From Heterodontus francisci (lineage: Eukaryota): a DNA stretch of 64,000 nucleotides. The notes under the pieces are model-generated. The model did no database searches and was not told the origin of the DNA. It was given only the letters and a program-made list of their open reading frames with translations. Numbering within the stretch: the first letter of the stretch is position 1; every line of letters starts with the position of its first letter. A program made the translations under genes and the position numbers. This document shows, piece after piece, positions 600 through 61,757 of the stretch. The stretch is from contig NC_090382.1 of NCBI RefSeq assembly GCF_036365525.1, positions 63,195,487 to 63,259,486 on the forward strand, written 5' to 3'.

Positions 600-3500
600 T
601 GGACTAGGGTTGTAGATAAGGCTTTAAAAAAATAGTTGGGGGGGTGGGGGGTGGGTTCAATTGAAGGGAAGTTTAAAAAGTCAAAAAGTAACGACACATC
701 AGAGGTGCAGGGCAGTGAAGGGGCATACATTAATCAAAGTGTGACAGGAAGGGACAGAGAATACAAGCACAAGAGTACAGCAGAAATTAGAACCAGAGTA
801 GGTAAAAATGGTAAAAAGTCAAAGTTTAAGGCTCTTTATCTGAATGCACGTAGCATTTGTAACAAGATAGATGAGCTGATGGCACAGATAGAAATAAATG
901 AATATGATTTGATAGCTATCACTGAGACGTGGTTGCAGGATGACCAGGACTGGAATCTTATTGTTCAAGGATATTCAATGTTCCGGAAGAATAGGCAGAA
1001 AGGAAGAAGAGGTGGGGTAGCTTTGCTATTAAAGGAAGGGATCAGTGCAGTTGTGAGTAATGATACAGGTGTAATAGATTGTGATGTAGAATCAGTTTGG
1101 GTGGAAATAAGGAATAGCAAGGGAACGAAATCACAGGTGGGAGTAGTCTACAGGCCCCCAAAGAGTTGCCTCTCTGTAGGATATTAATCAGGAAATAATG
1201 GAGGCGTGTAAGAAGGGCACTGCAATTATCATGGGTGATTTTAATCTGCATATAGACTGGACAAATCAAATTGGCAAGGGTAGCATGGAAGACGAATTTG
1301 TAGAGTGCCTCAGGGATTGTTACTTAGAGCAATATGTTGCAGAACCTACCAGGGAACAGGCTATTTTAGATTTGGTAATGTTTAATGAGGTAGGATTAAT
1401 AAGAAATCTCATATTTAAGGATCCTTTAGGGGGAAGCGATCATAACATGGTGAATTTCAAATTCAGTTTGAGGGTGAGTAACTTGGGTCTCAAACCAGTG
1501 TCTTCAACTGAAACAAGGGCAATTTCAGAGGTATGAAGAAAGAGTTGTCTAAAGCAGGCTGGGAAGATAGATTACAGGAGAAGTCAGTAGATGAGCAGTG
1601 GCAGACTGTTAAGCAGATATTTCATAACACTCAACAAATATTTATTCCAGTCAGAAGGAAGGACTCGAAGAGAACGATGAACCACCTGTGGATAACAAAG
1701 GAAGTTAAGGAGAGTATCAAATCAAAAGCAAAGCTGTGCAATGCGGCAAAAACGAGTGGTACGCCAGAGGATTGGGAAGTTTTTAGAAACCAGCAGCGGA
1801 TGACTAAAAAACTAATAAAGAGGGAGAAAATTGATTATGAGAGTAAATTGGTAAGAAATATAAAAATGAACAGTAAGAGCTTCTATGGGTATATTAAAAG
1901 GAAGAGAGCAGCTAAAGTAAGTGTGGGGCCCTTAGAGGATGAGAATGGGGAATTAATAACAGGGAACAGGGAAATGGCAGATTTAACCAATATTTTGCAT
2001 TGGTCTTCACGGTGGAGTACACTATAAACATCCCAATAATAATAGATGAACAAGGTGTAAATGGGAGGGAGGAACTTGTAACAATCTCTATCATGAGGGA
2101 AAAGGTGCTGGACAAACTGATGGGACTAAAGGAAGACACGTTGCCAGGACCTGATGACCTGCACCCAAGGGCTTTAAATAAGTGGCTTCAGAGATGGTGG
2201 AGGCATTGGTCATAATATAACAAAACTCACTGGATACCAGTGGATTGGAAAACCGTTAATGTGACACCCCTATTCAAGAAAGGAGGGAGACAGAAAGCAG
2301 GAAACTTCAGACCAGTTAGCTTAACATCAGTCATTGGGAAAATGCTTGAGTCCATTATTAAGGAAGAAATAGCAGGACATTTAGAAAAACATAATGCAAT
2401 CAAACAGAGTCAACATGGTTTCATGAAAGGGAAATCATTTTTGACAAATTTGTTCTAGTTCTTTGAGGATATAACAAGCAGAGTGGATAAAGGAGAACCA
2501 GTAGATGTGTATTTGGATTTTCAGAAGGCGTTCGATAAGGTGCCACATAAAAGGTTATTGCACAAAATAGGAACTCAGAGTATTGGGGGTAATGTGTTGG
2601 CATGGATTGAGGATTGGCTAACACACAGAAGGCAGAGAGTCGGGATTAATGGGTCTTTTTCAGGTTGGAAAGCCGTGACTAGTGGGGTGTCACAAGGATC
2701 GGTCCTAGGGCCTCAGCTATTTACTATCTACATTAATGACTTAGAGGAAGGGACAGAGTGTAGTGTATCCAAATTTGCTGATGATACAAAAATAGTTGTG
2801 ATGAGGACATAAAGAATCTGAAAAGGGATATAGATAGGTTAAGTGAGTGGGCAAAAATTTGGCAGATGGTGTTCAATGTGGGAAAGTGTGAGGTAATCCA
2901 CTTTGGTAGGAAGAATAAAAAGGCAGATTATTATTTAGATGGAGAAAGACTACAAAATACTGCAGTACAGAGGGATCTGGGTCTTCTTGTGCATGAAACA
3001 CAAAAGGTTAGCATGCAGGTGTAGCAAGTAATTAGGAAGGCAAATGAAATTTTGGCCTTTATTGCTAGGGGGTTAGAGTTTAAAAATAGGGAAGTCCTGT
3101 TACAACTGTACAGGGTGTTGGTGAGGCCACACCTGGAGTACTCCGTATTTAAAGAAGGATATACTAGTATTGGAAGCAGTTCAGAAAAGGTTCACTAGGC
3201 TGATTCCTGGGATGAAGGGGCTCTGTTATCAAGAATGGCTAAACAGGTTAGGGCTTTATTCATTGGAGTTCAGAAGAATGAGAGGTGATCTTATAGAAAC
3301 ATATAAGATTTTAAGGGGGCTTGACAGGGTAGATGTTGAGAAGATGTTTCTACCAGTGGGGGAATCTCGAACTAGGGGACATAATTACAGAATAAGGGAG
3401 CACACATTTAAAACTGAGATGCAAAGGAATTTCTTCTCTCAGAGGGTGGTGAATCTCTGGAATTCTCTGCCTCAGAGAGTTGTGGAGGCTAGGACACTAA

Positions 3501-3686
3501 ATGTATTTAAGGAGGAGGTAGATAGATTTTTGAAATCTCGGGGAGTCGAGAGTTAGGCAGAGCAAGCCCGAAAGAGAAGTTGAGGACTGGGACAGATCAG
3601 CCATGATCTTATTGAATGGCGGGGCAGGCTTAAGGGGCTGAATGGCCTACTCCTGCTCCTATTTCTTCTGTTCTTCTGTTCTTATG
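600..3686 (+). mobile_element. CR1-clade LINE (HER1-like), ORF2 endonuclease + RT, frameshifted, with 3' tail
   Basis: ORF pieces give APE motifs (LYLNARSI, IAITETWL, GGGVALL, IIMGDFN, SDHNMV) and RT motifs ([36 protein letters not shown]), then the CR1 C-terminus (RRMRGDLIETYKI, WNSLP). The 3' tail GGCTGAATGGCCTACTCCTGCTCCTATT is followed by (TTCTG)n/TTCTTATG. Confidence 0.95.
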
Positions 3687-7611: not shown

Positions 7612-7709
7612 ACTCAGCTCACCACCACCTTCTTAACGGCAATTAGGGATGGGCAATAAATGCTGGCCCGGCCAGCGACGCCCACATCCCATGAATGAAT
7701 TAAAAAAAA
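7612..7709 (+). mobile_element. 3' tail only of the tRNA-headed LINE family
   Basis: CAGCTCACCACCACCTTC...GGCAATTAGGGATGGGCAATAAATGCTGG...CCCACATCCCATGAATGAAT(A)n is nearly identical to 48523-48618. Confidence 0.9.
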
Positions 7710-11540: not shown

Positions 11541-11896
11541 GGGGCGGCACAGTGGCGCAGTGGTCAGCACCGCAGCCTCACAGCTCCAGCGACCCGGGTT
11601 CAATTCTGGGTACTGCCTGTGTGGAGTTTGCAAGTTCTCCCTGTGTCTGCGTGGGTTTCCTCCGGGTGCTCCGGTTTCCACCCACATGCCAAAGACTTGC
11701 AGGTTGATAGGTTAATTGGCCATTATAAATTGCCCCTAGTGTAGGTAGGTGGTAGGGAAATATAGGGACAGGTGGGGATGTGGTAGGAATATGGGATTAG
11801 TGTAGGATTAGTATAAATGGGTGGTTGATGGTCGGCACAGACTTGGTGGGCCGAAGGGCCTGTTTCAGTGCTGTATCTCTAAACTAAACTAAACTA
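11541..11896 (+). mobile_element. HE1-type V-SINE (tRNA head, V domain, CR1 tail)
   Basis: A box TGGCGCAGTGG, B box GGTTCAATTCT, V-domain GTGTGGAGTTTGCAAGTTCTCCCTGTGTCTGCGTGGGTTTCCTCCGGGTGCTCCGGTTTCC, and tail GGGCCGAAGGGCCTGTTTCAGTGCTGTATCTCT(AAACT)n. Confidence 0.92.
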
Positions 11897-12985: not shown

Positions 12986-15900
12986 TGGGGGTTAAACTGG
13001 GTAAGACATGGCAACGAACTCTAATTTAAATGTTCCAATAAGGCTCCAGTCTATTTTGGACGGGACTGTGGTCTGCCTATTACGAAGCCTGCTCGAAAAT
13101 ACATCAGGTTGCCCTCAGGCATGAAGTCTGCCCAAAGTTTTTTCACAAACATTCCAAATCAATACATTGACACCAAAAACTGTGAGAAAGGCAGATGAAA
13201 ATAACCTTCACAGATTGTGGTACACAATTAACCCATTCAGTGCATGGCAGGTTAAGCATTAGATTTGTGCTGTCTGCTGATTTTCACAATTGCTGCGTAC
13301 AGCCAGCGCTACCCACTGTTCATGGGCTGCATGCTTCAGCAGGAGGCCCAATATCATGAGTGGCTAGTGCTCCCTAAAGGTAGCCAGCTTCACTTAAAGG
13401 GGAGATTCATTACTAATGCTGGAAGTTGTGTCTGAAACTTAATTCATCTTGAAGATTTTTGCCAAGATGGCTCAACCTGCAAGAGAATGTACACCAAGGT
13501 TTTCTGATAATGCACTGGAGACCTTGGTGCAAGACATGGAGAGAAGGAGAAGTAACCTATATCTGCAGATGGGCAGAAGACCCTTGAGATAAATTCTGTG
13601 GAGGCAGTGGGAAGTAGCAGTGGAGCTCAATGTCAGGAATATAGCGTGAAGAACATGGAAGCACTGCAGGAAGAAGTTTAATGATATAACAGGAGCTGTC
13701 AAGATGGGTGATTCAATCTTCGAATGCCACATCCTACCAACTGCAACACTAGCCTCATCCACTGCTCATTCTACAACACCCCCATCACCCACCTTCTAAC
13801 AATCTCTATCAATTAGTACTAACACTTCAATTCATATGGTTTACATCACCATCAGATACTTAGCACTGTTGCAAGCTACAACTTGAACACACTTCCAGAA
13901 ATTCAACCATGCCAACCACATCACCCAAATATATTGCGAGATACTCACTGATACACTTCCCTCTTTCTTACAGGAGAAGGTAGTGCATAACAGAAGGCAG
14001 CAGGAAAGAACTGGAGGAGGACAAGTGAGCATGTATGTTTAATCCTCATGGAGACACAGTGGAGGCCATGGCCATGGGGTGGGGGGCAGGGTGGTGAAGT
14101 GATCAATGATGAGGGTACATGCATACTTCATCCTCCTTCTCATCCCACTTCTCCTTCATCCTACAATCTGTTCTGATTCGTAAGCTTGGAATGATCTGAC
14201 CACACATTTATTACATTCTCCTCTCCCCTCAGCACAACTCTTTGCCACATTTTCATTTCAGATAATCAAGAACTGGAACCTTCCCAGTCAGAGAAGGAAG
14301 AGCAAGAAGGCAGTGAAGGTGAAGAGACACCAGTCACATTGGTCAGTAGCTGGTCAGCCACTAGCTCAGATACTGACACTGTGCATATGTTAGAGGTTAG
14401 GATAGAGGAGGGATCTGCAGGTGGTGAGACAATGAGCACAAGTGCACAGGAGGCAGAGCAGGGGAAATAAGGATAACACAGGTGCCAGAAGGCAAGGTCG
14501 CACACTAATTCTGCTACAGAGAAGTCAGATGAAAACTTTGATGGCCCAGACTACAGAAGAAGGCTGATGGACGTACACAACCAAATGTTTGGTGCACTGG
14601 AAAATCTTCCAGAAAGCCTGCAATCCATGTCAAGGAACATGGGCAAGTCCATTTCTAACTTGGCACAGGACTTTTCACAATGCTTGGAGCCCATCTTTAC
14701 TAACATGGAATGTGTGGTCACCTCCATCAGCACACCTGTGGAACCCACCACGATGCAGCATCTGATGGCCGATGTCACTGTTTCCATTGCAACACAAACA
14801 ACTTCCATTAAATGTCTGAGTGCTGCAGTGCAATCTCAGACTGCTGCCTTGCAAGTTCAGACTGCTGCCATTGTGGTTCTAAATACCACTGGTCAAAGGG
14901 GCTTCCATAGCATCACAGCAGTCCAGCAATCTGTTATCCAACAGATCAGTAGGATTGCTGAGGGACTCTCCCGGGAGAGTAACAGTGGTTTCATGGAACA
15001 GGAACCTGCTGTCCTCTCTGAGAATGGCAGCATTCCTTCTCCCACCTCTGCCACACTGCCACTGCCCTTACCTTTGCCTGTCAACAAGCCAGGCCATACT
15101 GCTGCAGACCATGGCAAAGTGGTGCAGTGTGAAAGCAAGACCTCTAGGCCCAGGGCTGCTCAAGGTCAACCTCCAAAGCCAACTGCAATCTGCTCAATTA
15201 CAGGTCAGCAACGTTCCACCACCAATACTGTAGCCATTGAGAAAGCATCTCATTGGAGCACTAGGAAAGGTAAAGGCACACAGAAGACAAGAAGCAAGGG
15301 AATACACAAGTGTGATTAAATAATGCATACAGAAGGAAACTTGTGAGTGAATTTATAAAATTAGATTTGTATTTGCATTTCCTGGTGGTTTTTATTTTTG
15401 TGTTATCAGTAAAAGAACAATGGTGGTCAGTGGTAAAGGAAAGGTAAGAAGGTTTTTTTATTCATTCATGAGATGTGGGCATTGCTGGCTAGGACAGCAT
15501 TTATTGCCCATCCCTAATTGCCCTTGAGAAGATGGTGGTGAGCCGCCTTTTTGAACCGCTGCAGTCCATGTGGGGTAGGTACACCCACAGCATTGTTAGG
15601 AAGGGAGTTCCAGGAGTTTGACCCAGTGACAGTGAAGGAACGGCGATACAGTTCCAAGTCAGGATGGTGTGTGGCTTGGAGGAGAACTTGCAGGTGGTGA
15701 TGTTCCCATGCAACTGCTGCTCTTGTCATTCTAGGTGAAAGATGCTGTCTAAGGAGCCTTGGTGCATTTCTGCAGTGCATCTTGTAGCTGGTACACACTG
15801 CTCCCACTGTGCGTTGGTGGTGGAGGGAGTGAATGTTCATGGATGGGGTGCCAATCAAGCGGGCTGCTTTGTCCTGGATGGTGTTGAGCTTCTTGAGTGT

Positions 15901-16730
15901 TGTTGGAGCTGCATCCATCCAGGCAAGTGGGGAGTATTGCATCACACTCCTGAGTGTGGAACTTTTGACGACTGGGATACTGTCATTGAGGTTTCTGGTA
16001 TCCCAAGGGATTAATCTAATCATGTAGAGCCCAGGCAGAAAGGGACTGTCTACGTTGTAGCCTTCCTTCCTCTTCCTATTCTTTCATTTCCTCTTGTACT
16101 TACCTCTCCTCTTCGTCCACTTCCTCCCCTTTTTAGCAGCTTGTCCTACCCTGTGTGGTCTTGCTTCATTCTCCCAGTCATGTTCAATTCCCAGAGAAAA
16201 CCCTACCAGGCCACCCATGTCTGGAAACAACTCCTTTCAGCACAATATTTTATATGACTAAAAAGCACTATGAAACCAAACAGACCACTCACTGCAGAGT
16301 ATTCAAATGTTAGCCAAATATAGGAAGCCTCCAAAAACATGTAAAGTTACACCAGAAGCCAAAAGGAAAATATCCATCAACTAACCTGTAAGTACTTCAT
16401 GATCCCTTTGCTGGGGTACCTTCATCCCATTTAACATTATGTTCAGCAGAGCAAGGTTAGGACAGGGTGTTGGTTGGAGAGAAGAGCTGTAAAATTGCAG
16501 TGATGGCTTGGTCATTTCAAATCAGCACTGCACACTCATTCATGTCATCACCTCACTGCTCTGCATTCTGTCGGCGGTCAGTAGGTGCACACATGCAAGC
16601 CCCTTTACTAAGATGGCATCCTGCACACTACCCATCGGAAGTGTGCGCATGCATCATGGATCCCATTTGAGTTTTATGTAGCTGGATAACATCTACAAAG
16701 CAGACATCACATGAAGCAACTTACTCTCCC
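12986..16730 (+). mobile_element. Decayed PIF/Harbinger element with a spliced Myb/SANT-like gene
   Basis: ATG 13467 starts MAQPARECTPRFSDNALETLVQDMERRRSNLY...WRQWEVAVELN...RTWKHCRKKFNDI. Acceptors lie before 13974 (TTCTTACAG|GAGAAGG) and 14262 (TTCATTTCAG|ATAA), and the last exon includes ORF 14567-15319. The ends are approximate. Confidence 0.7.
15453..15953 (-). mobile_element. 3' fragment of the tRNA-headed LINE family
   Basis: It is near-identical to 29192-29695 (QYSPLAWMDAAPTTLKKLNTIQDKAARLIG...WNSLP). Confidence 0.92.
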
Positions 16731-17087
16731 TTTTATTAAAACCAGAGCCAACAATTTTTTTTGCCTTTATTATCTTTTTCCTTCTTTAGATTTCTTAATG
16801 CTGCGATATATTTTTCTTCATACAAAAATAGGGTTGGGACTCCCTATGTCCTATAAGGAGCTGAAAGGGTTAATGTTGGAGACAGTAAGAACAATCCCTC
16901 CCACTGTGGTGAGGATGATGTAACAGTCACATGGTAATGGGTTTTGGAAGTTGAGTAGCAGCACGAAGCATGCTAGCTAGAGAGGCTTGAGGACAGTGTA
17001 AATAGAGATGTATAAATAATAAAAGAGTAATTAGTTGACCTTATCCAAACTACAAGACTTTAGCAACAATGCCCTAGCTACGCTACT

Positions 17088-20234: not shown

Positions 20235-21390
20235 ACACTGTTTGGGATTTTCTTCTCCCTGCTGCTCTCACATGCGTTCAAGTCTTCAGAAGAAGGAATT
20301 TTCCTCCATGCAAGATCAGGTGGCAGGTTGTTCAACCTTGCCCATCTAAGAGCGAAGACCAAAGTACGGAAAGTCCTCATCAAGGAACTTCTCTTTGCTG
20401 ACGATGCTGCATTAACATCTCACACTGAAGAGTGTCTGCAGAATCTCATCGACAGGTTTGCGGCTGCCTGCAACGAATTTGGCCTAACCATCAGCCTCAA
20501 GAAAACGAACATCATGGAACAGGACGTCAGAAATGCTCCATCCATCAATATCGGCGATCACGCTCTGGAAGTGGTTCAAGAGTTCACCTACCTAGGCTCA
20601 ACTATCACCAGTAACCTGTCTCTAGATGCAGAAATCAACAAGCGCCTGGGAAAGGCTTCCACTGCTATGTCCAGACTGGCCAAGAGAGTGTGGGAAAATG
20701 GCTCACTGACACGGAACACAAAAGTCCGAGTGTATCAAGCCTGTGTCCTCAGTACCTTGCTCTACAGCAACGAGGCCTGGACAACGTATGTCAGTCAAGA
20801 GCGACGTCTCAATTTATTCCATCTTCGCTGCCTCCGGAAAATCCTTGGCATCAGGTGGCAGGACCGTATCTCCAACACAGAAGTCCTCGAGGCGGCCAAC
20901 ATCCCCAGCTTATACACCCTACTGAGTCAGCGGCGCTTGAGATGGCTTGGCCATGTGAGCCGCATGGAAGATGGCAGGATCCCCAAGGACACATTGTACA
21001 GCGAACTCGCCACTGGTATCAGACCCACCGACCGTCCATGTCTCCGCTTTAAAGACGTCTGAAAACGCGACATGAAGTCCTGTGATATTGATCACAAGTC
21101 GTGGGAGTCAGTTGCCAGCGATCGCCAGAGCTGGCGGGCAGCCATAAAGGCGGGGTTAAAGTGTGGCGAGTCGCAGAGACTTAGCAGTTGGCAGGAAAAA
21201 AGACAGAGGCGCAAGGGGAGAGCCAACTGTGAAACAGCCCTGACAACCAATTTTATCTGCAGCACCTGTGGAAGAGTCTGTCACTCTAGTATTGGCCTTT
21301 ATAGCCACTCCAGGTGCTGCTCCACAAACCACTGACCACCTGCAGGTGCTTACCCATTGTCTCCCGAGACAAGGAGGCCAAAGAAGAAGA
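20235..21390 (+). mobile_element. RTE-clade LINE 3' part (second family)
   Basis: ORF 20328-21062 (LLFADDAAL, FTYLGS, RRLRWLGHVSRM), the C-terminal CSTCGRVCHSSIGLYSH, and a (AAG)n tail. Confidence 0.93.
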
Positions 21391-27288: not shown

Positions 27289-29191
27289 AGATCAGGGAGA
27301 CTCGTGAAACCTCCCAACAGAATAAATCTGTGAAGCTAGAGACTTGGTGAGAGAAAGGGTAGTAGGTAAAGTCAAGAATGTATATATTTAAGAAGATGCA
27401 TGGGTAAAGACTTGTGGAGAGATATAGTATAAGAACCTGAAAGGGTTAATGTTGGAGACAATGAGAACAACCCCTCCCACTGTAGTGATGATGATGTAAC
27501 AGTCACATGGTAATGGGTTTTGGAAGGGAGTGTAGCAGCATGAAGGATGCCAGCTAGAGAGGCTTGAGGAGAGTGTAAATAGAGATGTGTAAATAAGTTA
27601 TTTGTGATGCTAATCCAGACTCGAGGCATTATCAATAACACCCTAGCTATACTACTATCACAACAACAACCCACAACAGCCTGGGATCCCAGTGATCCAT
27701 TGCTGTCTTCAATGCCACTTTGTAATCACTGAAAACATACAGTGCCTTTGCAACAGTGGATTAAGCATCTCCCACATAAAATGTAGCATTTCATCTGGTT
27801 GCTTGGCAACAGTTTTCAACTACCAGCTAAGGCTTGATTCTTAAAGTCTTCTCACTGGGAATCTGATCATCTTGCATATAGCATTTACAGTACAGAAACA
27901 AGTCATTCAGCCCAACTGTTCCATGCCAGTGATTATGCTCCAAACGAGCCACCTTGTTAAATGAAAAATGTTCAAATTGTGTTATTGGATGTTCCAGCAT
28001 AAATGTATGAAAGTACAAATACTGTGTTTCTGACTCCAAAAAGTCTGCATCACTTCTATTGAGACCCACACAAAATGGCAGGCCAGTGATTGAGGAAGAG
28101 TCAGCTCCACTGTAACCAGTGGAATCAATACAACACCCTGTAATCAAATGTCAGTCACATCATTATATGCATTGAAAGCATTTACATCTGCCTATTATTC
28201 AAGTTTTATACCCTGAGCTTAATAACATACCAGTAATTGCTGTGAGGACTACAAAGTCAAGTTATACCAGCTGGATAGACTGGTTGTCCAACTTCCAAGT
28301 AAACTCAGAGCACCACTGTGTATGTCCAAGCAAATATGTGATGGCAAATATGGACAACCTTATGAATGTATGGATATACCTAGATCTATAGGTACCACAG
28401 TATTCTCACTCTTAGGAAGATGGTGTACATAATGTTCATGTTCAGCATAACCTGGTCAGGTGGCATTATTCAACGTTCCTGACTCATGCTTGTTAGTCAT
28501 ATATAACAAGACCACAATGTTCTATTTGAAGATCTAACGGGTGACTGAAATGCACTCTTCTCATATTAATCATACTGTAGGAGTATAATATGAGTTTGAC
28601 CTTTCAAAATCTATTTAAATATTGCATTTTATGAATTAATAGAGGAGACATCTAGAATAAATTAATTTTCTTCATAATTTCATCATTCAGTATAAACTTT
28701 ATCATGTCTTCATTATGCTGCAGCAGCATAGGACAGAAAATCTATTAAAATATTACACAAAAGAACATTATAAGCGACAGGCACTCTTCAGCTTACAACA
28801 AATTTTGCACAATTACTCTGATAATTTGTTTTATTGAATAGTGAAGTTATGTTTTAAATTTGATTAAATTTGCCTAGGTATATTTCAGTTATAGAGTACA
28901 AATTAGTTTGGCAGCTGTTCTACTCCAAATTACACTGCCCCCGGATACTTATAGTTCAAGTCTTACATTTGTGTTGAAGATTTAATAACATCATAACCCA
29001 GACACTACTGTTGACATTATGAATACTGCAAACCGTGACACACTCGGCCACATGATTATAGAATCCAATATAATTAACACAGTGGATTATTCCTCATCTA
29101 AATATCCTATAATGTGCTTATTAAATGGCATAACACTGCAATTTTCATTTCACACCCACCCTCTACAGCAATACACACAGTTTCACAAGAT

Positions 29192-32100
29192 TTTTTTTTA
29201 TTCATTCATGGGATGTGGGAGTCACTGGCCAGGCCAGCATTTATTGCCCATCGCTAATTGCCCTTGAGAAGGTGGTGGTGAGCTGCCTTCTTGAACCGCT
29301 GCAGTCCATTTGGGGTAGGTATACCCACATTGCTGTTAGGAAGGGAGTTCCAGGATTTTGACCCAGCGACAGTGAAGGAACGGCAATATAGTTCCAAGTC
29401 AGGATGGTGTGTGACTTGGAGGGGAACTTGCAGGTGGTGGTGTTCCCATGTATTTGCTGCCCTTGTCCTTCTAGTTGGTAGAGGTCGCAGGTTTGGAAGG
29501 TGCTGTCTAAGGAGCCTTGGTGCGTTGCTGCAGTACACACTGCTGTCACTGTGCGTCGGTGGTGGAGGGAGTGAATGTTTGTGGATGGGGTGCCAATCAA
29601 GCGGGCTGCTTTGTCCTGGATGGTGTCGAGCTTCTTGAGTGTTGTTGGAGCTGTACCCATCCAGACAAGTGGAGAGCATTCCATCACACTCCTGACTTGT
29701 ACCTTGTAGATGGTGGACAGGCTTTGGGGAGTCAGGAGGTGAGTTACTCGCCTCTGATTCCTAGCCTCTGACCTGCTCTTGTAGCCAAGGTATTTATATG
29801 GCTACTCCAGTTCTGGTCAATGGTAGTCCCTAGAATGTTGATAGTGGGGGATTCAGCGATGGTAATGCTGTTGAATTTCAAGGGGAGATGGTTAGATTCT
29901 CTTTTGTTGGAGATGGTCATTGCCTGGCACTTGTGAGGCGCGAATGTTACTTGCCATTTATCAGCCCAAGCCTGGATATGGTCCAGGTCTTGCTGCATTT
30001 CTACATGGACTGCTTCAGTATCTGAGGAGTCACGAATGGTGCTGAACATTGTGCAATTATCAGTGGACATCCCCACTTCTGACCTTATGATTGAAGGAAG
30101 GTCATTGATGAAGCAGCTGAAGATGGTTGGGCCGAGGACACTACACTGAGGAACTCCTGTATTGATGTCCTGAAGCTCAGATGATTGACATCCAACAACC
30201 ACAACAATCTTCCTTTGCGCTAGGTATGACTCTAGCCAGCGGAGGGTTTTCCCCTGAATTCCCATTGACTTCAGTTTTACCAGGGCTCCTTGATGCCATA
30301 CTCGGTCAAATGCTGCCTTGATGTCAAGGGCATTCACTCTCACCTCACCTCTTGAGTTCAGCTCTTTTGTCCATGTTTGAACCAAGGCTGTAATGAGATC
30401 AGGAGCTGAGTGGCCCTGGCGGAACCCAAACTGAGCATCACTGAGCAGGTTATTACTAAGCAAGTGCCGCTTGATGGCATTGTTGATGACACCTTCCATC
30501 ACTTTACTGATGATTGAGAGTAGGCTGATGGGGCGGTAATTGGCCGGGTTGGACTTGTCCTGCTTTTTGTGTATAGGACATACCTGGGCAATTTTCCACA
30601 TTGCAGGGTAGATGCCAGTGTTGTAGCTGTACTGGAACAGCTTGGCTAGGGGCGCGGCAAGTTCTGGAGCACAGGTCTTCAGTACTATTGCCGGAATATT
30701 GTCAGGGCCCATAGCTTTTGCAGTATCCAGTGTCCTCAGTCGTTTCTTGATATCACGCGGAGTGAATCGCATTGGCTGAAGTCTGGCATCTGTGATGCTG
30801 GGGATTTCAGGAGGAGGCCGAGATGGATCATCAACTCGACACTTCTGGCTAAAGATTGTTGCAAATGCTTCAGCCTTATCTTTCGCACTGATGTGCTGGG
30901 CTCCCCCATCATTGAGGATGAGGATATTTGTGGAGCCATCTCCTCCAGTTAGTTGTTCAATTGTCCACCACCATTCACGGCTGGATGTGGCAGGACTGCA
31001 GAGCTTAGATCTGATCCTATGGTTTTGGGATCGTTTGCTCTGTCTAGCGCATGCTGCTTACGCAGTTTGGCACACAGATAATCCTGTGTTGTAGCTCCAC
31101 CAGGTTGACACCTCATTTTGAGGTATGCCTGGTGCTGCTCCTGGCATGCCTTCCTGCACTCTTCATTGAACCAGGGTTGGTCTCCTGGCTTGATGGTAAT
31201 GGTAGACTGGGGGATATGCCAGGCCATGAGGTTACGGATTGTGGTTGAGTACAATTCTGCTGCTGCTGATGGCCCACAGCGCCTCATAGATGCCCAGTTT
31301 TGCATTGCTAGATCTGTTCGAAATCTATCCCATTTAGCACGGTGATAGTGCCACACAACACGATGGCCGGTATCCTCAATGTGAAGGCGGGACTTCGTCT
31401 CCACAAGAACTGTGCGGTGGTCACTCCTACCAATATAGTCATGGACAGAAGCATCTGCAGCAGGCAGATTGGTGAGGACGAGGTCAAGTATGTTTTCCCC
31501 TCATGTTGGTTCCCCCACCACCTGCCGTAGACCCAGTCTAGCAGCCATGTCCTTTAGGACTCGGCCAGCTCGGTCGGTAGTGGTGCTACCGAGCCAATCT
31601 TGGTGATGGACATTGAAGTCCCCCACCCAGAGTACATTTTGTGCCCTTGCCACCCTCAGTGCTTCCTCCAAGTGGTGTTCAACATGGAGGAGTACTGAGT
31701 CATCAGCTGAGGGAGGGCGGTAGGTGGTAATCAGTAGGAGGTTACCTTGCCCATGTTTGACCTGATGTCATGAGACTTCATGGGGTCCAGTGTCGATGTT
31801 GAGGACTCCAAAGGCAACTCCCTCCCTACTGTATACCACTGTGCCACCAACTCTGGTAGGTCTGTCCTGCCGGTGGGACAGGACATACCCGGGGATGGTG
31901 ATGGCAGTGTCTGGGACGTTGTCTGCAAGGTATGATTCTGTGAGTATGACTATGTCAGGCTGTTGCTTGACTAGTCTGTGGGATAGCTCTCCCAACTTTG
32001 GCACAAGCCCCCAGATGTTAGTAAGGAGGACTTTGCAGGGTCGACAGGGCTGGGTTTGCCGTTGTCGTTTCTGGTGCCTAGGTCGATGCTGGGTGGTCTG

Positions 32101-32393
32101 TCCGGTTTCATTCCTTTTTATTGACTTCATAGGTCTGGAGTCACATGTAGGCCAGACCAGGTAAGGACAGCAGATTTCCTTCCCTAAAGGACATTAGTGA
32201 ACCAGATGGGTTTTTGCAACAATCGACAATGGTTTCTTGCCCAATATTAGACTAGCTTTTAATTCCTGATTTATTAATTAAATTCAAATTCCACCTTCTG
32301 CTGTGGTGGGATTCGAACCCATGTCCGCAGAGAAATACCCTGGGTCTCTGGGTTACTAGTCCAGTGGTAATACCACTACGCCACCGCCTACCC
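29192..32393 (-). mobile_element. Near full-length single-ORF (APE-RT) CR1-group LINE with a tRNA-derived 5' head
   Basis: TSD CAAGAT at 29186-29191 and 32394-32399. A box TGGCGTAGTGG 32373-32383 and B box GGTTCGAATCC 32309-32319. APE (LTNIWGL, VILTESYL, GDFNVH) and RT (MGPDNIP, NYRPISLL, LDIKAAFDRVWH, SVLGP), then an ATGAATGAAT(A)n tail. The ORF is broken by frameshifts. Confidence 0.93.
32305..32390 (-). promoter_or_regulatory. Type-2 Pol III internal promoter (A and B boxes) in the LINE head
   Basis: TGGCGTAGTGG, then a CTGGA-CTAGTAA-CCCAG anticodon-like arm, a long variable-arm-like segment, and GGTTCGAATCC. Confidence 0.75.
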
Positions 32394-32761
32394 CAAGATG
32401 CAAATCGTTATTGTTCAACTGCATCTGGATCTCATCGTGCCCGTGATCTGCCTTTGTCTGAGGGAAGAGAGTTCATGGAATGGAATGAATTCCCATGACA
32501 GTGTTCTTATTTATTATGGGGTTTGAGCTTTGAGCTGGACCAATCTGTTTGTGGTCTACTCGTGTGTGGATGGCTGCTGGGATACTTATGCATAATCTTC
32601 TGGTTTTCCTGGTACTACCAGATGAATTCAGATTTTTCGAAGCACTTTTACCTTGATGGGATACAATCAACAGCTAATGTCATTTCTTCACCAACAACAG
32701 TCCTTCTAAGTATAAACATCCTAGCTTCCTGAGTACCAACAGCAATGCAGACTCAAGATTT

Positions 32762-39726: not shown

Positions 39727-40080
39727 GGGCAGCACGGTGGCGCAGTGGTTAGCACCACAGCCTCACAGCTCCAGCGACCCAGGTTCAGTTCTCGGTACTG
39801 CCTGTGCGGAGTTTGCAAGTTCTCCCTGTGACTACGTAGGTTTTCGCCGGGTGCTCTGGTTTCCTCCCACAGCCAAAGACTTGCATGTTGATAGATAAAT
39901 TGGCTGTTGTAAATTGCCCCTAGTGCAGGTAGATGGTAGGAGAATAGCAGGGATGTGGTAGGGAATATGGGATTAATGTAGGATTAGTATAAAATGGGTG
40001 GTTGTTGGTCGGCACAGACTCAGTGGGCGGAAGGGCCTGTTTCTGTGCTGTATCTCTAAATAAATAAAAAATAAATAAAT
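39727..40080 (+). mobile_element. HE1-type V-SINE inserted in the Harbinger transposase
   Basis: It has the same head, V domain and tail as 11541-11896, ends in (TAAA)n, and interrupts the transposase just after IDCTHV. Confidence 0.92.
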
Positions 40081-46724: not shown

Positions 46725-47030
46725 GACACGTAGCAAACAATCCAGTTAGTTGGGGGTGTCTTCTCTTGGTGCACCTTTGTTGATGGCTGTGAAGGCCAAT
46801 CCTTGAGAGGCAGGTTCTGCCACAAGTGCCAAACGTGAAGCTGCCAAGTGACGTTGTGAGTTATTGTTTTTGATGTTGGCACCTGTTGCCAAGCTGCTGT
46901 AGCAATTGGTCGTCATGGTAGTGCACATCAGTCCTCAGGATGTGTCACCATTTCCCTCTTTCACCAGCTAGTCACTCCCAAGTGCTATAGTCAACATTTA
47001 GGGCCTTCATGTCATGCTTGCAAGCATCCT
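46725..47030 (-). mobile_element. Old RTE 3' fragment
   Basis: Minus strand reads SFTFGTCGRTCLSRIGLHSHQQRC, the RTE C-terminal motif. Confidence 0.75.
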
Positions 47031-48618
47031 TGCAGCAGTATTATCACTGGACTAGTAACCCAGAGACCCAGGGTATTGATCTGGAGACATGGGTTCGAAT
47101 CCCACCACAGCAGAAGGTGGAATTTGAATTCAATTAATAAATCTGGAATTAAAAAGCTAGTCCAGTGATGGCCATGAAACCATTGTCGATTGTTGTAAAA
47201 ACCCATCTGGTTCACTAACGTCCTTTAGGGAAGGAAATCTGCTGTCTTTACCTGGTCTGGCCTACGTGTGACTCCAGACCCACAGCAATGTGGTTAACTC
47301 TTACATGCCCTCTGAAATGGCCTAGCAAGCCACTCAGTTGTACCTAACTGCTACAAAGTCAAAAAAAGGAATGAAACCAGACGGACCACCCGCATTGACC
47401 TAGGCACTGGAAACGACAACGGCAAACCCCTAGCCCTGTCGAACCTGCGAAGTCCTCCTTACCTGGGGGCTTGTGCCAAAGTTGGGAGAGCTGTCCCACA
47501 GACTAGTCAGGCACAGCCTGACATAGTCATACTCACGGAATCATACCTTGCAGACAATGTCCCAGACACTGCAATCACTATTGCTGTCCCACCGGCAGGA
47601 CAAACCCAGCAGAGGTGGCGGGACAGTGGTCTACAGTAGGGAGGGAGTTGCCCTGGGAGTCCTCAGCATTGACTCCGGACACCATGAAGTCTCATGGAAT
47701 CAGGTCAAACATGGGCAAGGTAACCTCCTACTGATTACCACCTACCTCCCTCCCTCAGCTGATGACTATGTCCTGTACAGAAAAAGCAGGACAAGTACAA
47801 CCCGGCCAAATACCACCCCATCAGTCTACTCTCAATCATCAGCAAAGTGATGGAAGGTGTCATCAACAGTGCCATTAAGCAGCACTTACTTAACAATAAC
47901 CTGCTCAGTGATACCCAGTTTGGGTTCCGACAGCCTTGGTTCAAACATGGACAAAAGGGCTGAACTCAAGAGGTGAGGTGAGAGTGACTGCCCTTGACAT
48001 CAAGGCAGCATTTGACTGAGTATGGCATCAAGGAGCCCTAGCAAAACTGAAGTCAATGGGAATCAGGGGGAAAACTCTCTGTTGGTTGGAATCATACCTG
48101 GTGCAAAGGAAGATGGCTGTGGTTGTTGGAGGTCAGTCATCTGAGCCTGGATGGGTGCAGCTCCAACAAACTCAAGAAACTCGACAACATCCAGGACAAA
48201 GCAGCCCTCTTGATTGGCACACCATCCACAAACATTCACTCCCTCCACCACCGACGCACAGTGGCAATAGTACACTGCAGCAACACACCAAGGCTCCTAA
48301 GACAGCACCTTCCAAACCCGCGACCTCTACCACCTCGAAGGACAAGAGCAGCAGATACATGGGAATATCACTATATGCAAGTTCCCCTCTAAGTGACACA
48401 CCACCCTGACTTGGAACTATATCGCCGTTCCTTCACTGTCGCTGAGTCAAAATCCTGGAACTCCCTTCCTAACAGCACTGTGGGTGTACCTACCTCACAC
48501 GGACTGCAGCGGTTCAAGAAGGCAGCTCACCACCACCTTCTCAAGGGCAATTAGGGATGGGTAATAAATGCTGGCATAGCCAGCGACGCCCACATCCCAT
48601 GAATGAATAAGAAAAAAA
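47030..48618 (+). mobile_element. Internally deleted copy of the tRNA-headed LINE
   Basis: It has the same head (B box GGTTCGAATCC 47092-47102), the APE start, RT pieces and the 3' tail of 29192-32393, with deletions near 47766, 47932 and 48146. Confidence 0.92.
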
Positions 48619-49654: not shown

Positions 49655-50110
49655 CTTTTTTTTATTCTTTCATGGGATGTGAGGTTCGCTCACAAGGCCA
49701 GCATTTGTAGCCCTGCAGCCTTTGTCCTTCTAGGTGGTAGAGGCTGTGGCAATTGGAAGGTACTGTCAAAGGAGGCATGGTGAGTTGTTGCAGTGCATCT
49801 TGTATATGATGCACACTGCTGCCACTGTACGCTGGAAGTGGAAGGAGTGATGGTGATGGATGGGGTGCCGATCAAGCAGGCTGCTTTAACCTAGATAGTG
49901 TTGCTCGAGATGCAGTCACTCAGGCAATTGGAGAGTATTCCATCACACTCCTGACTTATGCCATGTAGGTGGTGGACAGGCTTTGGGGAGTCAGGCGGTG
50001 AGTTACTCGCTGCAGAATTCCCAGCCTCTCACCTGCTCTTCCCGCCATAGTATTTATATGGCTAGTCCAGTTAAGTTTCCTGTCAACGGTAACCCTCAGG
50101 ATGTTGATAT
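49655..50110 (-). mobile_element. Diverged 3' fragment of the tRNA-headed LINE family
   Basis: It aligns by eye to 29192-29240 and 29460-29842. Confidence 0.85.
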
Positions 50111-50731: not shown

Positions 50732-53484
50732 GGGGTGAATTTTCGGGCCTCCCCCAGGGTCAGGAATAGAGGCAGGTGAGGTGGGCCCGAAAATACTGAC
50801 ACCAGCTGGCGTGTCAATTTTGAGAAGCCATTCCTGGCACCAGCAATGTTCACCATGTTGGGGTGAGGACAGGACGATGATCCCATCTGCCTCCCTATTG
50901 AGCCCAATTAAAATACTTAAACAGCTCATTAAAAGCTTGTTAGAGGAGGAGGTTCGAATTTTTAAATGTACATAGGTTTCATGCACTGTCCATTGCTGAC
51001 CAGCTGCAGGGAGACAGGTACAGAGTGGGCAGCCAGTTATGGCTTCCCCAGGGAATTACCCTGGCCCTGTAAGAGGGTCAGCAGGGTAAAGGGGGCATTT
51101 GGAAAGGAGGTTCTCTCGGCGCTGCGCAGGCGGCAGGGACATGAGCACTCAATGCACACGCACTGAATGGGGTCATCGCCCCACTGGCATCGCAAGAACA
51201 GAAGAGCAGGGAACAAGGCTGCCAATAACAATAGGACAGCTACCTGTCCAGAGGGAAAGCTGCAGCTGGCAACGGGGGCATGGCTGTCAGATTTTGGGCC
51301 CAGTGGTGATAAGGGGCAACACCCTCCACCGGAAGGGTGGAACCTCGAGCAGCAGGATGGCATGGGAGAGGACGGTACAGTGGCGCAGTGGTTAGCACCG
51401 CAGCCTCACAGCTCCAGCAACCCGGGTTCAATTCTGGGTACTGCCTGTGTGGAGTTTGCAAGTTCTCCCTGTGTCTGCGTGGGTTTCCTCCGGGTGCTCC
51501 GGTTTCTTCCCACATGCCAAAGACTTGCAGGTTGATAGGTAAATTGGCCATTATAAATTGCCTCTAGTATAGGTAGGTGGTAGGGAAATATAGGGATAGG
51601 TGGGGATGTGGTAGGAATATGGAATTAGTGTAGGATTAGTATAAATGGGTGGTTGATAGTCGGCACAGACTCGGTGGGCCGAAGGGCCTGTTTCAGTGCT
51701 GTATCACTAAACTAAACTAAAAAGGGGCATACTCTCATCGCAGATAGACCTACCTTGAGATGTCCGATACCCAGTGCCACAGGAGATGGTCACAGAGATC
51801 ACCTCGCTGAAGACCTCGCATCTCACAGCACATCTTGCCATGCCCTGATAGTAGCTGTCAAAGTCACTGTGACTATGAACTACTTCTCCTGTGGCTCCTA
51901 CCAAAGATCAGCTGTGGACCTTGGTGGCATCTCACAAATGGCAGCACACTACTGCATCTTGCAGGTCACTGATGCCCTCTTTGCCAGAGCAGTGCATTTA
52001 TTTCAGGACATACTTGGCCATGCAGCCATCGCTGGATTCCCCAGGTGCAGGGCATCATCAGTTGCACCCATGTAGCCATCAAGGCACCTAGTGATCTCCC
52101 ATGCAGATTCATCAACAGGAAGAGCTTCCACTCACTCAATGTCCAACTGGTCTGTGACCACAACCAGAGCTTCCTCCAAGTGTGCACTTGCTGTCTGGCA
52201 GCTGCCATGACTCCTTCATCTTCCAGCAGTTCAGGCTGCCTCAGATTTTCACTCCAACCCCCTCAAAGTGCCTAGATGAATCCTAGGGGATAAGGGATAC
52301 CCCTTGAAGACATGGCTACTCATACCTCACTGGGAGCCCCAGAAAAAGGCACAGGGGTACTAAAACCAATGCTACCTGCATAGTAAGACAGCCAGTAAGC
52401 AGGCCATCAGACTTTCGTAGATGCCTGGACCAGTCAGGTGGCATCCTCTAAAACCCTCTTGCAAGGTCTCTGTCATTGTGATCGCCTGATGCGTTGTCCT
52501 TAACCTGACCCTCTAGCGAGGTGTGGACTTTGAGGATGGTGAGGCCCTGGAAGGGGATAGCTCATTGGGGGAGCAGTATCAGCAAGAGGTGAGAGAGGAG
52601 AAAGAATCGGAGGCAGAGGGAGATGATGATGAATGGAGATGTTCCCTACTGCACAACAAGGTGGCCAGGCACAGCTCAGGGCGCAAGGTCTTGTAAGGAT
52701 GCCATGAATGTCAGGGATCTCCTGATTCAGGAATGGTTCAACCAGCTTGAGGGGCATGGCATGGCTTGGAAGGGAGACTGAGATACCTGTGCTAACATGC
52801 ATAGAAGATGCAGCCTGGAATATCAAATTGCTTACCGCCAATGACGGAAGCACATCTGCCCAGAGGTTTTCCCCTACCATGGAGGATCCTGTTACCTCTT
52901 TCACCACCTCATACGACATTCCTGTCACAGCAGCAATGAAAGGAGTCCCAGATGTGTGGCTTAAAGTGTTATCATTTATTTAGTGCAAAGAGAGGAAAAC
53001 AGTAGACAGAGACAGTAAAAACACACCCAATAACCCATCCAATGCTGGTAGCCTCCTCCTGCCACCCTCCAAGAAGCTGACCTCCCTCCTCTCTCTGTCA
53101 CGAACTCCAACATTTGATACAGGTTGGCATCAATCAAGTGAGGGGCAGCCCTACCCCAATACCAGGCCTGAGGCTGTCCTGTAACATCTTGCTTCCCTCT
53201 AGTGCTGTGGAAGGCTTTGACACAATCAGCAGCTTTCTCCCTTAGGACAACCAGCAGCCTGTGTGATGGCGGCAATGGGGAGTCTAAATCAGTTGCACAC
53301 TTCATCTGATCCATCTCCATCCCCGACCCCCACTGGCTCGAATTGGATAGGAAACCTGTCCCATATCAATTAAGAGCTTACCCCGTAACATCCGTGACTT
53401 TAATCAGTTTCCCACCAGAGGCAGGTTTCTGATCTGAAAACAAACCTGATTCCTGCATCCCGCCTCTGTGGCAAAAATTCTGCC
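50732..53484 (+). mobile_element. Decayed PIF/Harbinger transposase element
   Basis: TIR GGGGTGAATTTT / AAAATTCTGCCA. Motifs AVKVTVTMNYFSCGSYQ...GISQ, QGIISCTHVAIKAP...FINRKSFHSLNVQLVCDH and ILGDKGYPL. Confidence 0.85.
51369..51720 (+). mobile_element. HE1-type V-SINE
   Basis: It is near-identical to 11541-11896 and ends in (AAACT)n. Confidence 0.92.
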
Positions 53485-60569: not shown

Positions 60570-61414
60570 TAGTTTTGTGGTATGGTTGTTTGTGTTAGTG
60601 TCTAATAATTACTGTTAATGGATGTTAAGGGTGAACAGGTACTGGGTGTTAATTAGTTAACTGTACTCAAATGTATATATAGAAAACGCCAGGCAGCACT
60701 GGCTGGGTGTTGTTAGGAGTGGCGAAGTAACCTCTGTAGCAAGCAATAAACAGTCTCCAACAAAGCATCCTAGTTTCAGTGTCTTCTTCACAAATAGGCT
60801 TGGATGTTTCTTGAACATTGGTAGCAGAGGGTGGCTGCCTGAAAGTGAAGATTTGAGACTAAGATTTGTTTTCAGACAGGAGATTAGAATTGGAGTTTTT
60901 TTTTGAGAAGCCTGTAATTGGAGGTCATTTTTTGAAGAAAGATGACAGAAACGAGGTTTAAGGTGTCAGGATATGATTTTCCACTGCTATTTTGTGAAGC
61001 CGAACCTTACGATCAATGGAAGAATGAAGTTGATCTATGGACATGGCTTACGTCTTTACCAAAAAGGAAGCAAGGAACAACCCTTGCACTTTCATTTCTC
61101 GCCAGAAGCAAAATCAGGGACAAAGTGTCCTCGGAGCTAGAGGCTCATCATTTTGATAATGAGGAAGGTTTGTACAATCTCTTGAAATTTATGGATAAAA
61201 TTTATATGAAAGATGACTTATTGAGTACCAATGAGGTGTGGTTGGACTTTGATAAATTTTTAAAAATGGATGGTTCTTCCATACCGGAACATATTATGGA
61301 GTTTAACCGACTATATGCAAGGTTGCAGCGATTCTACTTGGAAGTTCCTAAATCAGTACTTGTCTTCAAATTGTAGGATTGTGCTTGGATATCAAACATA
61401 GATAGGCTCTTGGT

Positions 61415-61757
61415 CTGCAAACGCGACATGAAATCGTGTGACATTGATCACAAGTCGTGGGAGTCAGTTGCCAGCATTCGCCAGAGCTGGCGGGCAGCCA
61501 TAAAGACAGGGCTAAATTGTGGCGAGTCGAAGAGACTTAGTAGTTGGCAGGAAAAAAAGACAGAGGCGCAAGGGGAGAGCCAACTGTGCAACAGCCCCGA
61601 CAAACAAATTTCTCTGCAGCACCTGTGGAAGAGCCTGTCACTCCAGAATTGGCCTTTATAGCCACTCCAGGCGCTGCTTCACAAACCACTGACCACCTCC
61701 AGGCGCGTATTCCATTGTCTCTCGAGATAAGGAGGCCCAAAAGAAAGAAAAGAAAGA
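61415..61757 (+). mobile_element. RTE 3' fragment inserted in the Copia gag
   Basis: An 11-bp TSD AGGCTCTTGGT sits at 61404-61414 and 61758-61768. It is near-identical to 21057-21390. Confidence 0.93.

Follow-up and report, generated by a model that had tools for sequence, protein, structure and literature searches.

A tRNA-headed Zenon LINE of sharks and rays as a candidate for transcription by RNA polymerase III

Introduction

The products of RNA polymerase III (Pol III) are generally short and uncapped, and vertebrate Pol III terminates at runs of four or more T (T4 runs). Among non-LTR elements, R2 has no promoter of its own and inserts site-specifically. Like the element proposed here, R2 has a single ORF and an RNA that is not a capped Pol II transcript; it differs in that its RNA is transcribed together with 28S rRNA and released by an HDV-like ribozyme (PMC12222951). 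Rfam gave no ribozyme match in the element described below.

Heads derived from tRNAs are known from SINE2 elements, whose fixed 5′ end carries the A and B boxes. SINEs are short and do not code for protein (Kojima 2018, PMC5786205), whereas here a head of this kind sits on a coding element. RTE-1_DAn and elements related to it, listed in Repbase, show that there is a precedent for tRNA-like sequence in a LINE, but they belong to the RTE clade (PMC5786205). Pol III transcripts have been reported to retrotranspose in cells without ORF1p (PMC2666806). A start codon other than AUG on a structured leader of ~180 nt is described for the type 6 (dicistrovirus intergenic) IRESs, in which GCU is the commonest first codon (PMC12221177), and the occurrence of such IRESs in non-LTR elements has been raised as a hypothesis (PMC3894237).

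Here, we analyse a LINE copy in a 64,000-nt stretch of the Heterodontus francisci genome (the window) and the family to which it belongs. As the family is already in print, what is new here is the mechanism, a candidate one, suggested by an anatomy that had gone unremarked. In the openly available literature that we searched, there was no report of an autonomous LINE transcribed by Pol III, nor any mention of the head of Zenon.

Results

Identity of the family

Judged by its sequence, the family is the published elasmobranch Zenon, a LINE of the CR1 group (Stuart et al. 2026, PMC13343379); the preliminary description had supposed that it might already be catalogued. Two exact 16-nt motifs matched three and five rows in the supplement of that paper, and those listed were all Zenon. 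The first 400 nt, head included, matched by eye seven shark and ray Zenon consensuses (CarCar, HypSab, RhiTyp, ScyCan, SquAca). By eye, all seven kept the A and B boxes, with a differing spacer, and none had a T4 run in these 400 nt. The 5′ ends of two hagfish and one coelacanth Zenon had no head and contained T4 runs, also by eye. The likeness to elasmobranch Zenon extends to the length (2.9–3.3 kb), a single ORF with APE endonuclease and reverse transcriptase (RT), the lack of ORF1, and a poly-A rather than a microsatellite tail. All Zenons are described as having an A tail and no ORF1 (PMC13343379), and because headless Zenons share both, neither argues for Pol III. The words tRNA, polymerase III and pol III do not occur in the main text of PMC13343379, where the head, the T-run deficit and the missing AUG are unremarked. 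A gene model of Heptranchias perlo contains a piece 85% identical to the family, and the nearest full-length proteins in large libraries were unnamed and 33–39% identical.

SacSINE1 and other Deu-SINEs are also tRNA-headed repeats of cartilaginous fishes (PMC5499810, PMC4824008). An identity of the leader downstream of the Zenon head with the Deu domain/SacSINE1 was considered and rejected, since the leader is unlike the Deu domain: the Deu motif given in the supplement of PMC5786205 had no match in it, and one Deu-type SINE shared no alignment (best E 0.29).

The window copy and its relatives

The window contains a decayed full-length Zenon copy at 29192..32393 on the minus strand (family length ~3.29 kb; 5′ 400 nt compared with the published consensuses by eye). 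Its tRNA-like head lies at 32301..32393 (minus), position 32393 being the fixed family 5′ end. Both boxes of the preliminary description were located on the same strand, the A box at 32373..32383 (element positions 11–21) and the B box at 32309..32319 (element positions 75–85). ARAGORN found no tRNA genes within the 64-kb window, and the intact family head gave only a weak tRNA-clan match in Rfam (E 0.95). The copy is bracketed by the 6-nt repeat CAAGAT, at 32394..32399 on the 5′ side and at 29186..29191 on the 3′ side, where it overlaps the A tail (29191–29199). This target site duplication (TSD), already proposed, is probably real, but most copies show none: matches of at least 5 nt were found in 5 of 37 full-length copies (null mean 0.8), and 6-nt matches in two of the 37 (0.06 expected).

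The 5′ part of the leader (32133..32300, minus) holds the start of a near-invariant block at element positions ~170–335. The leader had been called short, which is true of this copy because 71 nt were deleted at 32132..32133 (minus); the family leader has ~330 nt. The deletion is private to the window copy and takes out two leader hairpins, the AUG-GCC-UAG frame and the first base of a GCT codon. The single APE-RT ORF follows at 29254..32132 (minus). At family level it is, as proposed, one frame, with 975 open codons and no in-frame AUG until codon 285, but in the window it is not intact. It has two in-frame stops (31770 and 31503), and of its deletions near 31037, 29814, 29757 and 29534 three shift the frame and one is of 6 nt. 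The window copy is dead. In its frames Pfam still recognised RVT_1 (E 1e-32) and, weakly, an endonuclease. An ATG near 32130 had tentatively been put down to CpG decay, which it is: ACG or ACA stands at that spot in other copies. The 3′ end (29192..29253, minus) has TGAA repeats, a short A tail and, ~45 nt ahead of that tail, an AATAAA; it is common to short non-coding derivatives.

Four further pieces were found in the window. A second copy at 47030..48618 (plus) has three internal deletions. It had been described as carrying the same head and ORF; its leader-ORF junction (47281–47355) is complete, but its head is clipped at the 5′ side, with the first ~20 nt, including the A box, lost. The copies at 15453..15953 (minus) and 49655..50110 (minus), the latter older, are 5′-truncated and retain the 3′ end only. 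At 7615..7708 (plus) there is a 3′-tail fragment of the Zenon family or of its short derivative.

The family in the genome

The pattern across the leader-ORF junction had at least 8,876 exact matches in the H. francisci genome (6.0 Gb). A search with the ORF start alone gave 39 matches outside the window, all of which were taken as the ORF-selected set. Twenty-nine of the 39 reached the first 12 nt of the head and ten were truncated (three clipped in the head, four in the leader and three at the ORF start). These numbers agree with the earlier view that the head is not a chance SINE beside a LINE. There was no headless full-length form and no ORF1 in any of the 39 copies, nor a common extension upstream of the head, and the flanks shared only the leader itself and unrelated short repeats. 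An upstream extension with an ORF1 or a Pol II promoter had been named beforehand as evidence against the proposal. Selection by the head gave the same picture, with 20 of 21 copies running on into ORF sequence and one straight to the tail (21 of 40 matches examined). Since the copies end at the head without shared upstream sequence, the head is the 5′ end of the family, and the family has no ORF1. The fixed 5′ end sits 10 nt before the A box.

The copies were dispersed, with unrelated flanks, and 42 full-length copies diverged by 2–9% from the column majorities. Like a SINE2, the family carries a 5′ tRNA-like head with A and B boxes; with an element of ~3.3 kb and a frame of 975 codons it is neither short nor non-coding. 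We found no reverse-transcription misincorporation mark at the T-loop A, as a tRNA-type modification might leave.

Depletion of T runs on the sense strand

The sense (minus) strand of 29192–32393 had no T4 or longer run, as claimed before, and the other strand had 17, tail included, where the earlier manual count was roughly 16. The counts for the other elements also agreed, with no sense T4 in the copies at 47030–48618, 15453–15953 and 49655–50110, and ten in the CR1 at 600–3686. Among the 42 full-length copies, 27 had no sense T4 (mean 0.45 per copy), and no site was common to more than three. Conserved sense T4 runs, previously named as counter-evidence, were thus not found.

The strength of this depletion depended on the null model. 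Against synonymous-codon shuffles the ORFs had 0.26 T4 runs where 2.7 were expected (P 0.007–0.42 per copy), and dinucleotide shuffles gave P values of 0.02–0.42 across copies. For the window copy, P was 0.037 and 0.10, respectively. With the counts of the trimer TTT held fixed, the T4 deficit was not significant (P 0.27–0.86). The depletion expected against a codon-shuffled null was present in direction, but modest for T4 alone (P ~0.02–0.1). The absence of T4 is weak when taken alone, because the copies all descend from few masters and are not independent.

TTT counts, and comparison with control LINE families, bring out the T-run deficit more clearly than T4 does. TTT was the most depleted of the 64 trimers, and TTTT the most depleted tetramer. 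Relative to the synonymous null, TTT reached 0.25–0.60 in 11 Zenon ORFs (z to −4.1), 0.75–1.28 in 13 ORFs from two unrelated families of LINEs equal in T content (20–22%), and 0.90 in one distant headless relative, the sole one from one metagenome scan. The base-shuffle null gave 0.25–0.43 for Zenon and 1.34–1.66 for CR1 copies, and the dinucleotide null 0.50–0.79 for four Zenon copies and 0.96–1.16 for thirteen CR1 copies. In all, one Zenon family was compared with three other LINE families. Older subfamilies (74–92% identical) kept the deficit, with 17 T4 runs in 44.8 kb. Selection against premature termination would produce a deficit of this kind, but it may also have another cause.

Runs of T before the A tail were considered as built-in terminators and rejected. 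The total tail stays at 9–12 nt, the T part shortens as the A part lengthens (rho −0.58, n 54), and the T runs are scattered on a star-like tree.

The leader and the start of the ORF

Between element positions 308 and 3232 one frame has no conserved stops. It has no in-frame AUG for 284 codons, the first conserved ATG being codon 285, past the start of the endonuclease; homologous proteins (8/8) start with Met shortly before the endonuclease. Just upstream and in frame there is an AUG-GCC-UAG, whose AUG, at element position 299, is in a strong context and is followed after one codon by UAG-CAA. The 7-nt spacer to the GCT codon (332) keeps the frame of this AUG in all masters of H. francisci. 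An 8-nt spacer fixed in one master lineage would have ruled out upstream starts, but the 104 matches for 8–9 nt were spread over three subfamily types and are best read as slippage.

Right after the GCT, the four subfamilies differ by whole-codon indels. Among the copies scored, the distance from the GCT to the next conserved anchor was divisible by three in 70 of 77 young ones and in 41 of 47 old ones; types of 33 and 36 nt occur. The ATG at element position 354 was rejected as a start, being in the wrong frame and absent from the oldest subfamily. Because of the codon-sized indels after the GCT, and because one subfamily lacks ATG 354, coding begins at or before ~335.

Loss of the UAG was considered as a sign of selection for an AUG-started ORF. 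By eye, it was lost in 18 of 100 LINE copies vs 20 of 100 short non-coding copies; with losses equal in coding and non-coding copies there is no sign of selection for read-through, and the losses belong to a general CTAG mutation hotspot. In the three Squalus consensuses there is, by eye, a second in-frame stop between UAG and GCT. These consensuses look imperfect: as printed, their GCT and ORF are not in one frame, and columns seem to have been dropped.

The leader block at ~170–335 is near-invariant across the four subfamilies, more so than the codons after it, although the old copies were chosen by a pattern covering 307–335, which by itself explains part of the invariance in that stretch. 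A single intact leader had a stable predicted fold (z −4.4). A hairpin at 294–319, with a 7-nt anticodon-like loop that can pair with the GCT codon, folds in three of the four subfamilies. This pairing was not above chance, with a like match in 6–8 of 38–42 element hairpins and no covariation, and no IRES family was among the Rfam matches at E up to 10; the pseudoknot idea therefore stays a lead. A second helix, 272–277 with 328–333, was rejected (pair probability 0 in all groups).

Short derivatives and RNA contigs

The head and leader were also found joined directly to the last 75 nt of the element, with at least 5,459 exact junction matches at two main junctions. Other derivative junctions retain the first codons and then jump to the 3′ end. 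In DNA contigs the short form had a far higher depth than the ORF start. These derivatives look like repeated internal deletions of the Zenon LINE. They resemble Persaeus, which keeps the 5′ and 3′ ends of butterfly Zenon; unlike shark Zenon, Persaeus and butterfly Zenon as described have no tRNA head and no Pol III promoter (PMC6740152).

Contigs assembled from eight of 24 RNA runs covered the head-ORF junction in several organisms, and also the short form. Start, strand, cap and level are not readable from such contigs, and RNA-type contigs were dominated by 3′ fragments.

Discussion

Taken together, we consider it on balance probable that the 3.3-kb Zenon RNA is made by Pol III and translated without a cap or an AUG. 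The tRNA-derived head would have been joined to Zenon in the ancestor of sharks and rays, and its A and B boxes would be bound by TFIIIC. With the T runs purged, Pol III could read the whole body and the templated A tail as well, and would terminate at whichever T run comes next in the flank. Ribosomes would be brought by the structured leader to the GCT-ACA codons (element 332–337) or to a point just ahead of them. The protein would bind the 3′ tail of the RNA and insert it by target-primed reverse transcription, and may also move the short derivatives. A more far-reaching version seems rather unlikely to us: a wholly Pol II- and cap-free autonomous coding retrotransposon, in which the 165-nt leader block would act as a factor-independent ribosome entry site and the anticodon-like loop would pair with GCU. 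It would be the first in an animal genome.

The element may instead be transcribed by Pol II, as LINEs are held to be (PMC5786205), with the head as a captured Pol II promoter, as an RNA end structure, or kept for the sake of the short derivatives. The AATAAA before the tail fits such a transcript, as does the marginal signal of T4 absence taken alone; the T-run deficit would be a relic or have another cause, such as RNA stability. For the start of the protein this reading offers the plainer solution, capped scanning followed either by read-through of the UAG that closes the short upstream frame or by reinitiation that needs no AUG, as for L1 ORF2, and the strong-context AUG at 299, held in frame by the 7-nt spacer, fits it. 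However, the second in-frame stop of the Squalus consensuses and the equal loss of the UAG in coding and short copies speak against read-through. Transcription by Pol II also leaves the A and B boxes of all seven shark and ray consensuses, kept despite a changing spacer, and a deficit confined to T runs of the sense strand and not seen in three other LINE families, without a ready reason. We regard Pol II transcription as possible, though unlikely.

Two RNAs could also share the work, a Pol III template RNA mobilised like a long SINE and a separate capped RNA, e.g., a host read-through transcript, as the source of the protein. This would cover the head, the T-run deficit and the missing AUG with no need to translate a Pol III RNA. 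It would agree with the dominance of 3′ fragments among RNA-type contigs, as expected of host read-through, and with the efficient movement of Pol III RNAs in trans (PMC2666806). Yet a capped host transcript would still have no in-frame AUG, and the ORF has remained open and joined to the head in four subfamilies and, in the published consensuses, in five other species, which is easier to understand if the protein acts on its own RNA. We therefore hold a division between two RNAs to be improbable. The abundance of short head-plus-tail elements (at least 5,459 exact junctions) might suggest a SINE-LINE chimera formed by chance or once only, or an accident of composition. A chimera is refuted by the copy survey, with its at least 8,876 leader-ORF junctions and no headless full-length form among 39 copies, and the published consensuses have the same junction in five other species; we give an origin by chance hardly any credence.

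The short derivatives may provide a natural case in which a SINE family arose through deletion of the middle of a LINE, with the promoter already present. For Zenon itself, the leader and its ORF would offer a testable case for the translation of an uncapped RNA without an AUG. If the element is indeed made by Pol III, it would be a vertebrate example of a natural Pol III transcript that codes for protein and is several kilobases long, kept in both sharks and rays, and the textbook division between Pol II LINEs and Pol III SINEs would be blurred.

Relatives, derivatives and other repeats

A distant Zenon-like single-ORF element was found in a metagenome contig (L081, 896-3890). It had an A tail and an AUG, lacked the tRNA head, and its coding strand was T-rich, with 21 T4 runs. 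The two other LINE families that served as controls for T-run depletion (sequences L082-L089, L093-L095, L097 and L099) had many intact frames of 1,136-1,252 codons, which points to likely recent activity of both. In Heptranchias perlo, an aldo-keto reductase gene model (protein P0002) carried ~215 residues of the Zenon ORF mid-protein, likely an annotation error.

In additional short derivatives of Zenon, the leader and first codons were joined directly to the final 100-130 nt of the element, and the junction took several different forms (L136, L138, L139, L140, L142, L152 and L165; also L077, on the minus strand). At about 5700-6200 of L122 lay a tRNA SINE of the Deu type whose tail was L2-like; it was unrelated to the Zenon leader. 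Three more short repeat families, of 240-350 nt each, recurred within the 64-kb window: one with three copies (11542-11893, 39727-40068 and 51370-51721) and two with two copies each (21057-21388 and 61413-61745; 16852-17087 and 27428-27656).

Tail composition and CTAG substitutions

In many of the Zenon copies L001-L080, the T/A boundary in the 3' tail was shifted, leaving 1 to 9 T, while the total tail length remained within 9-12 nt. These tails suggest that, after insertion, A is converted to T where the two bases adjoin.

The T or A in CTAG contexts mutated to all three other bases, several-fold above other non-CpG sites. The affected sites included element position 305, at the UAG of the upstream short frame, and others, e.g., 2439 of copy L043. 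Coding and short Zenon copies alike had the raised substitution, and CTAG is a mutation hotspot of the Heterodontus francisci genome.
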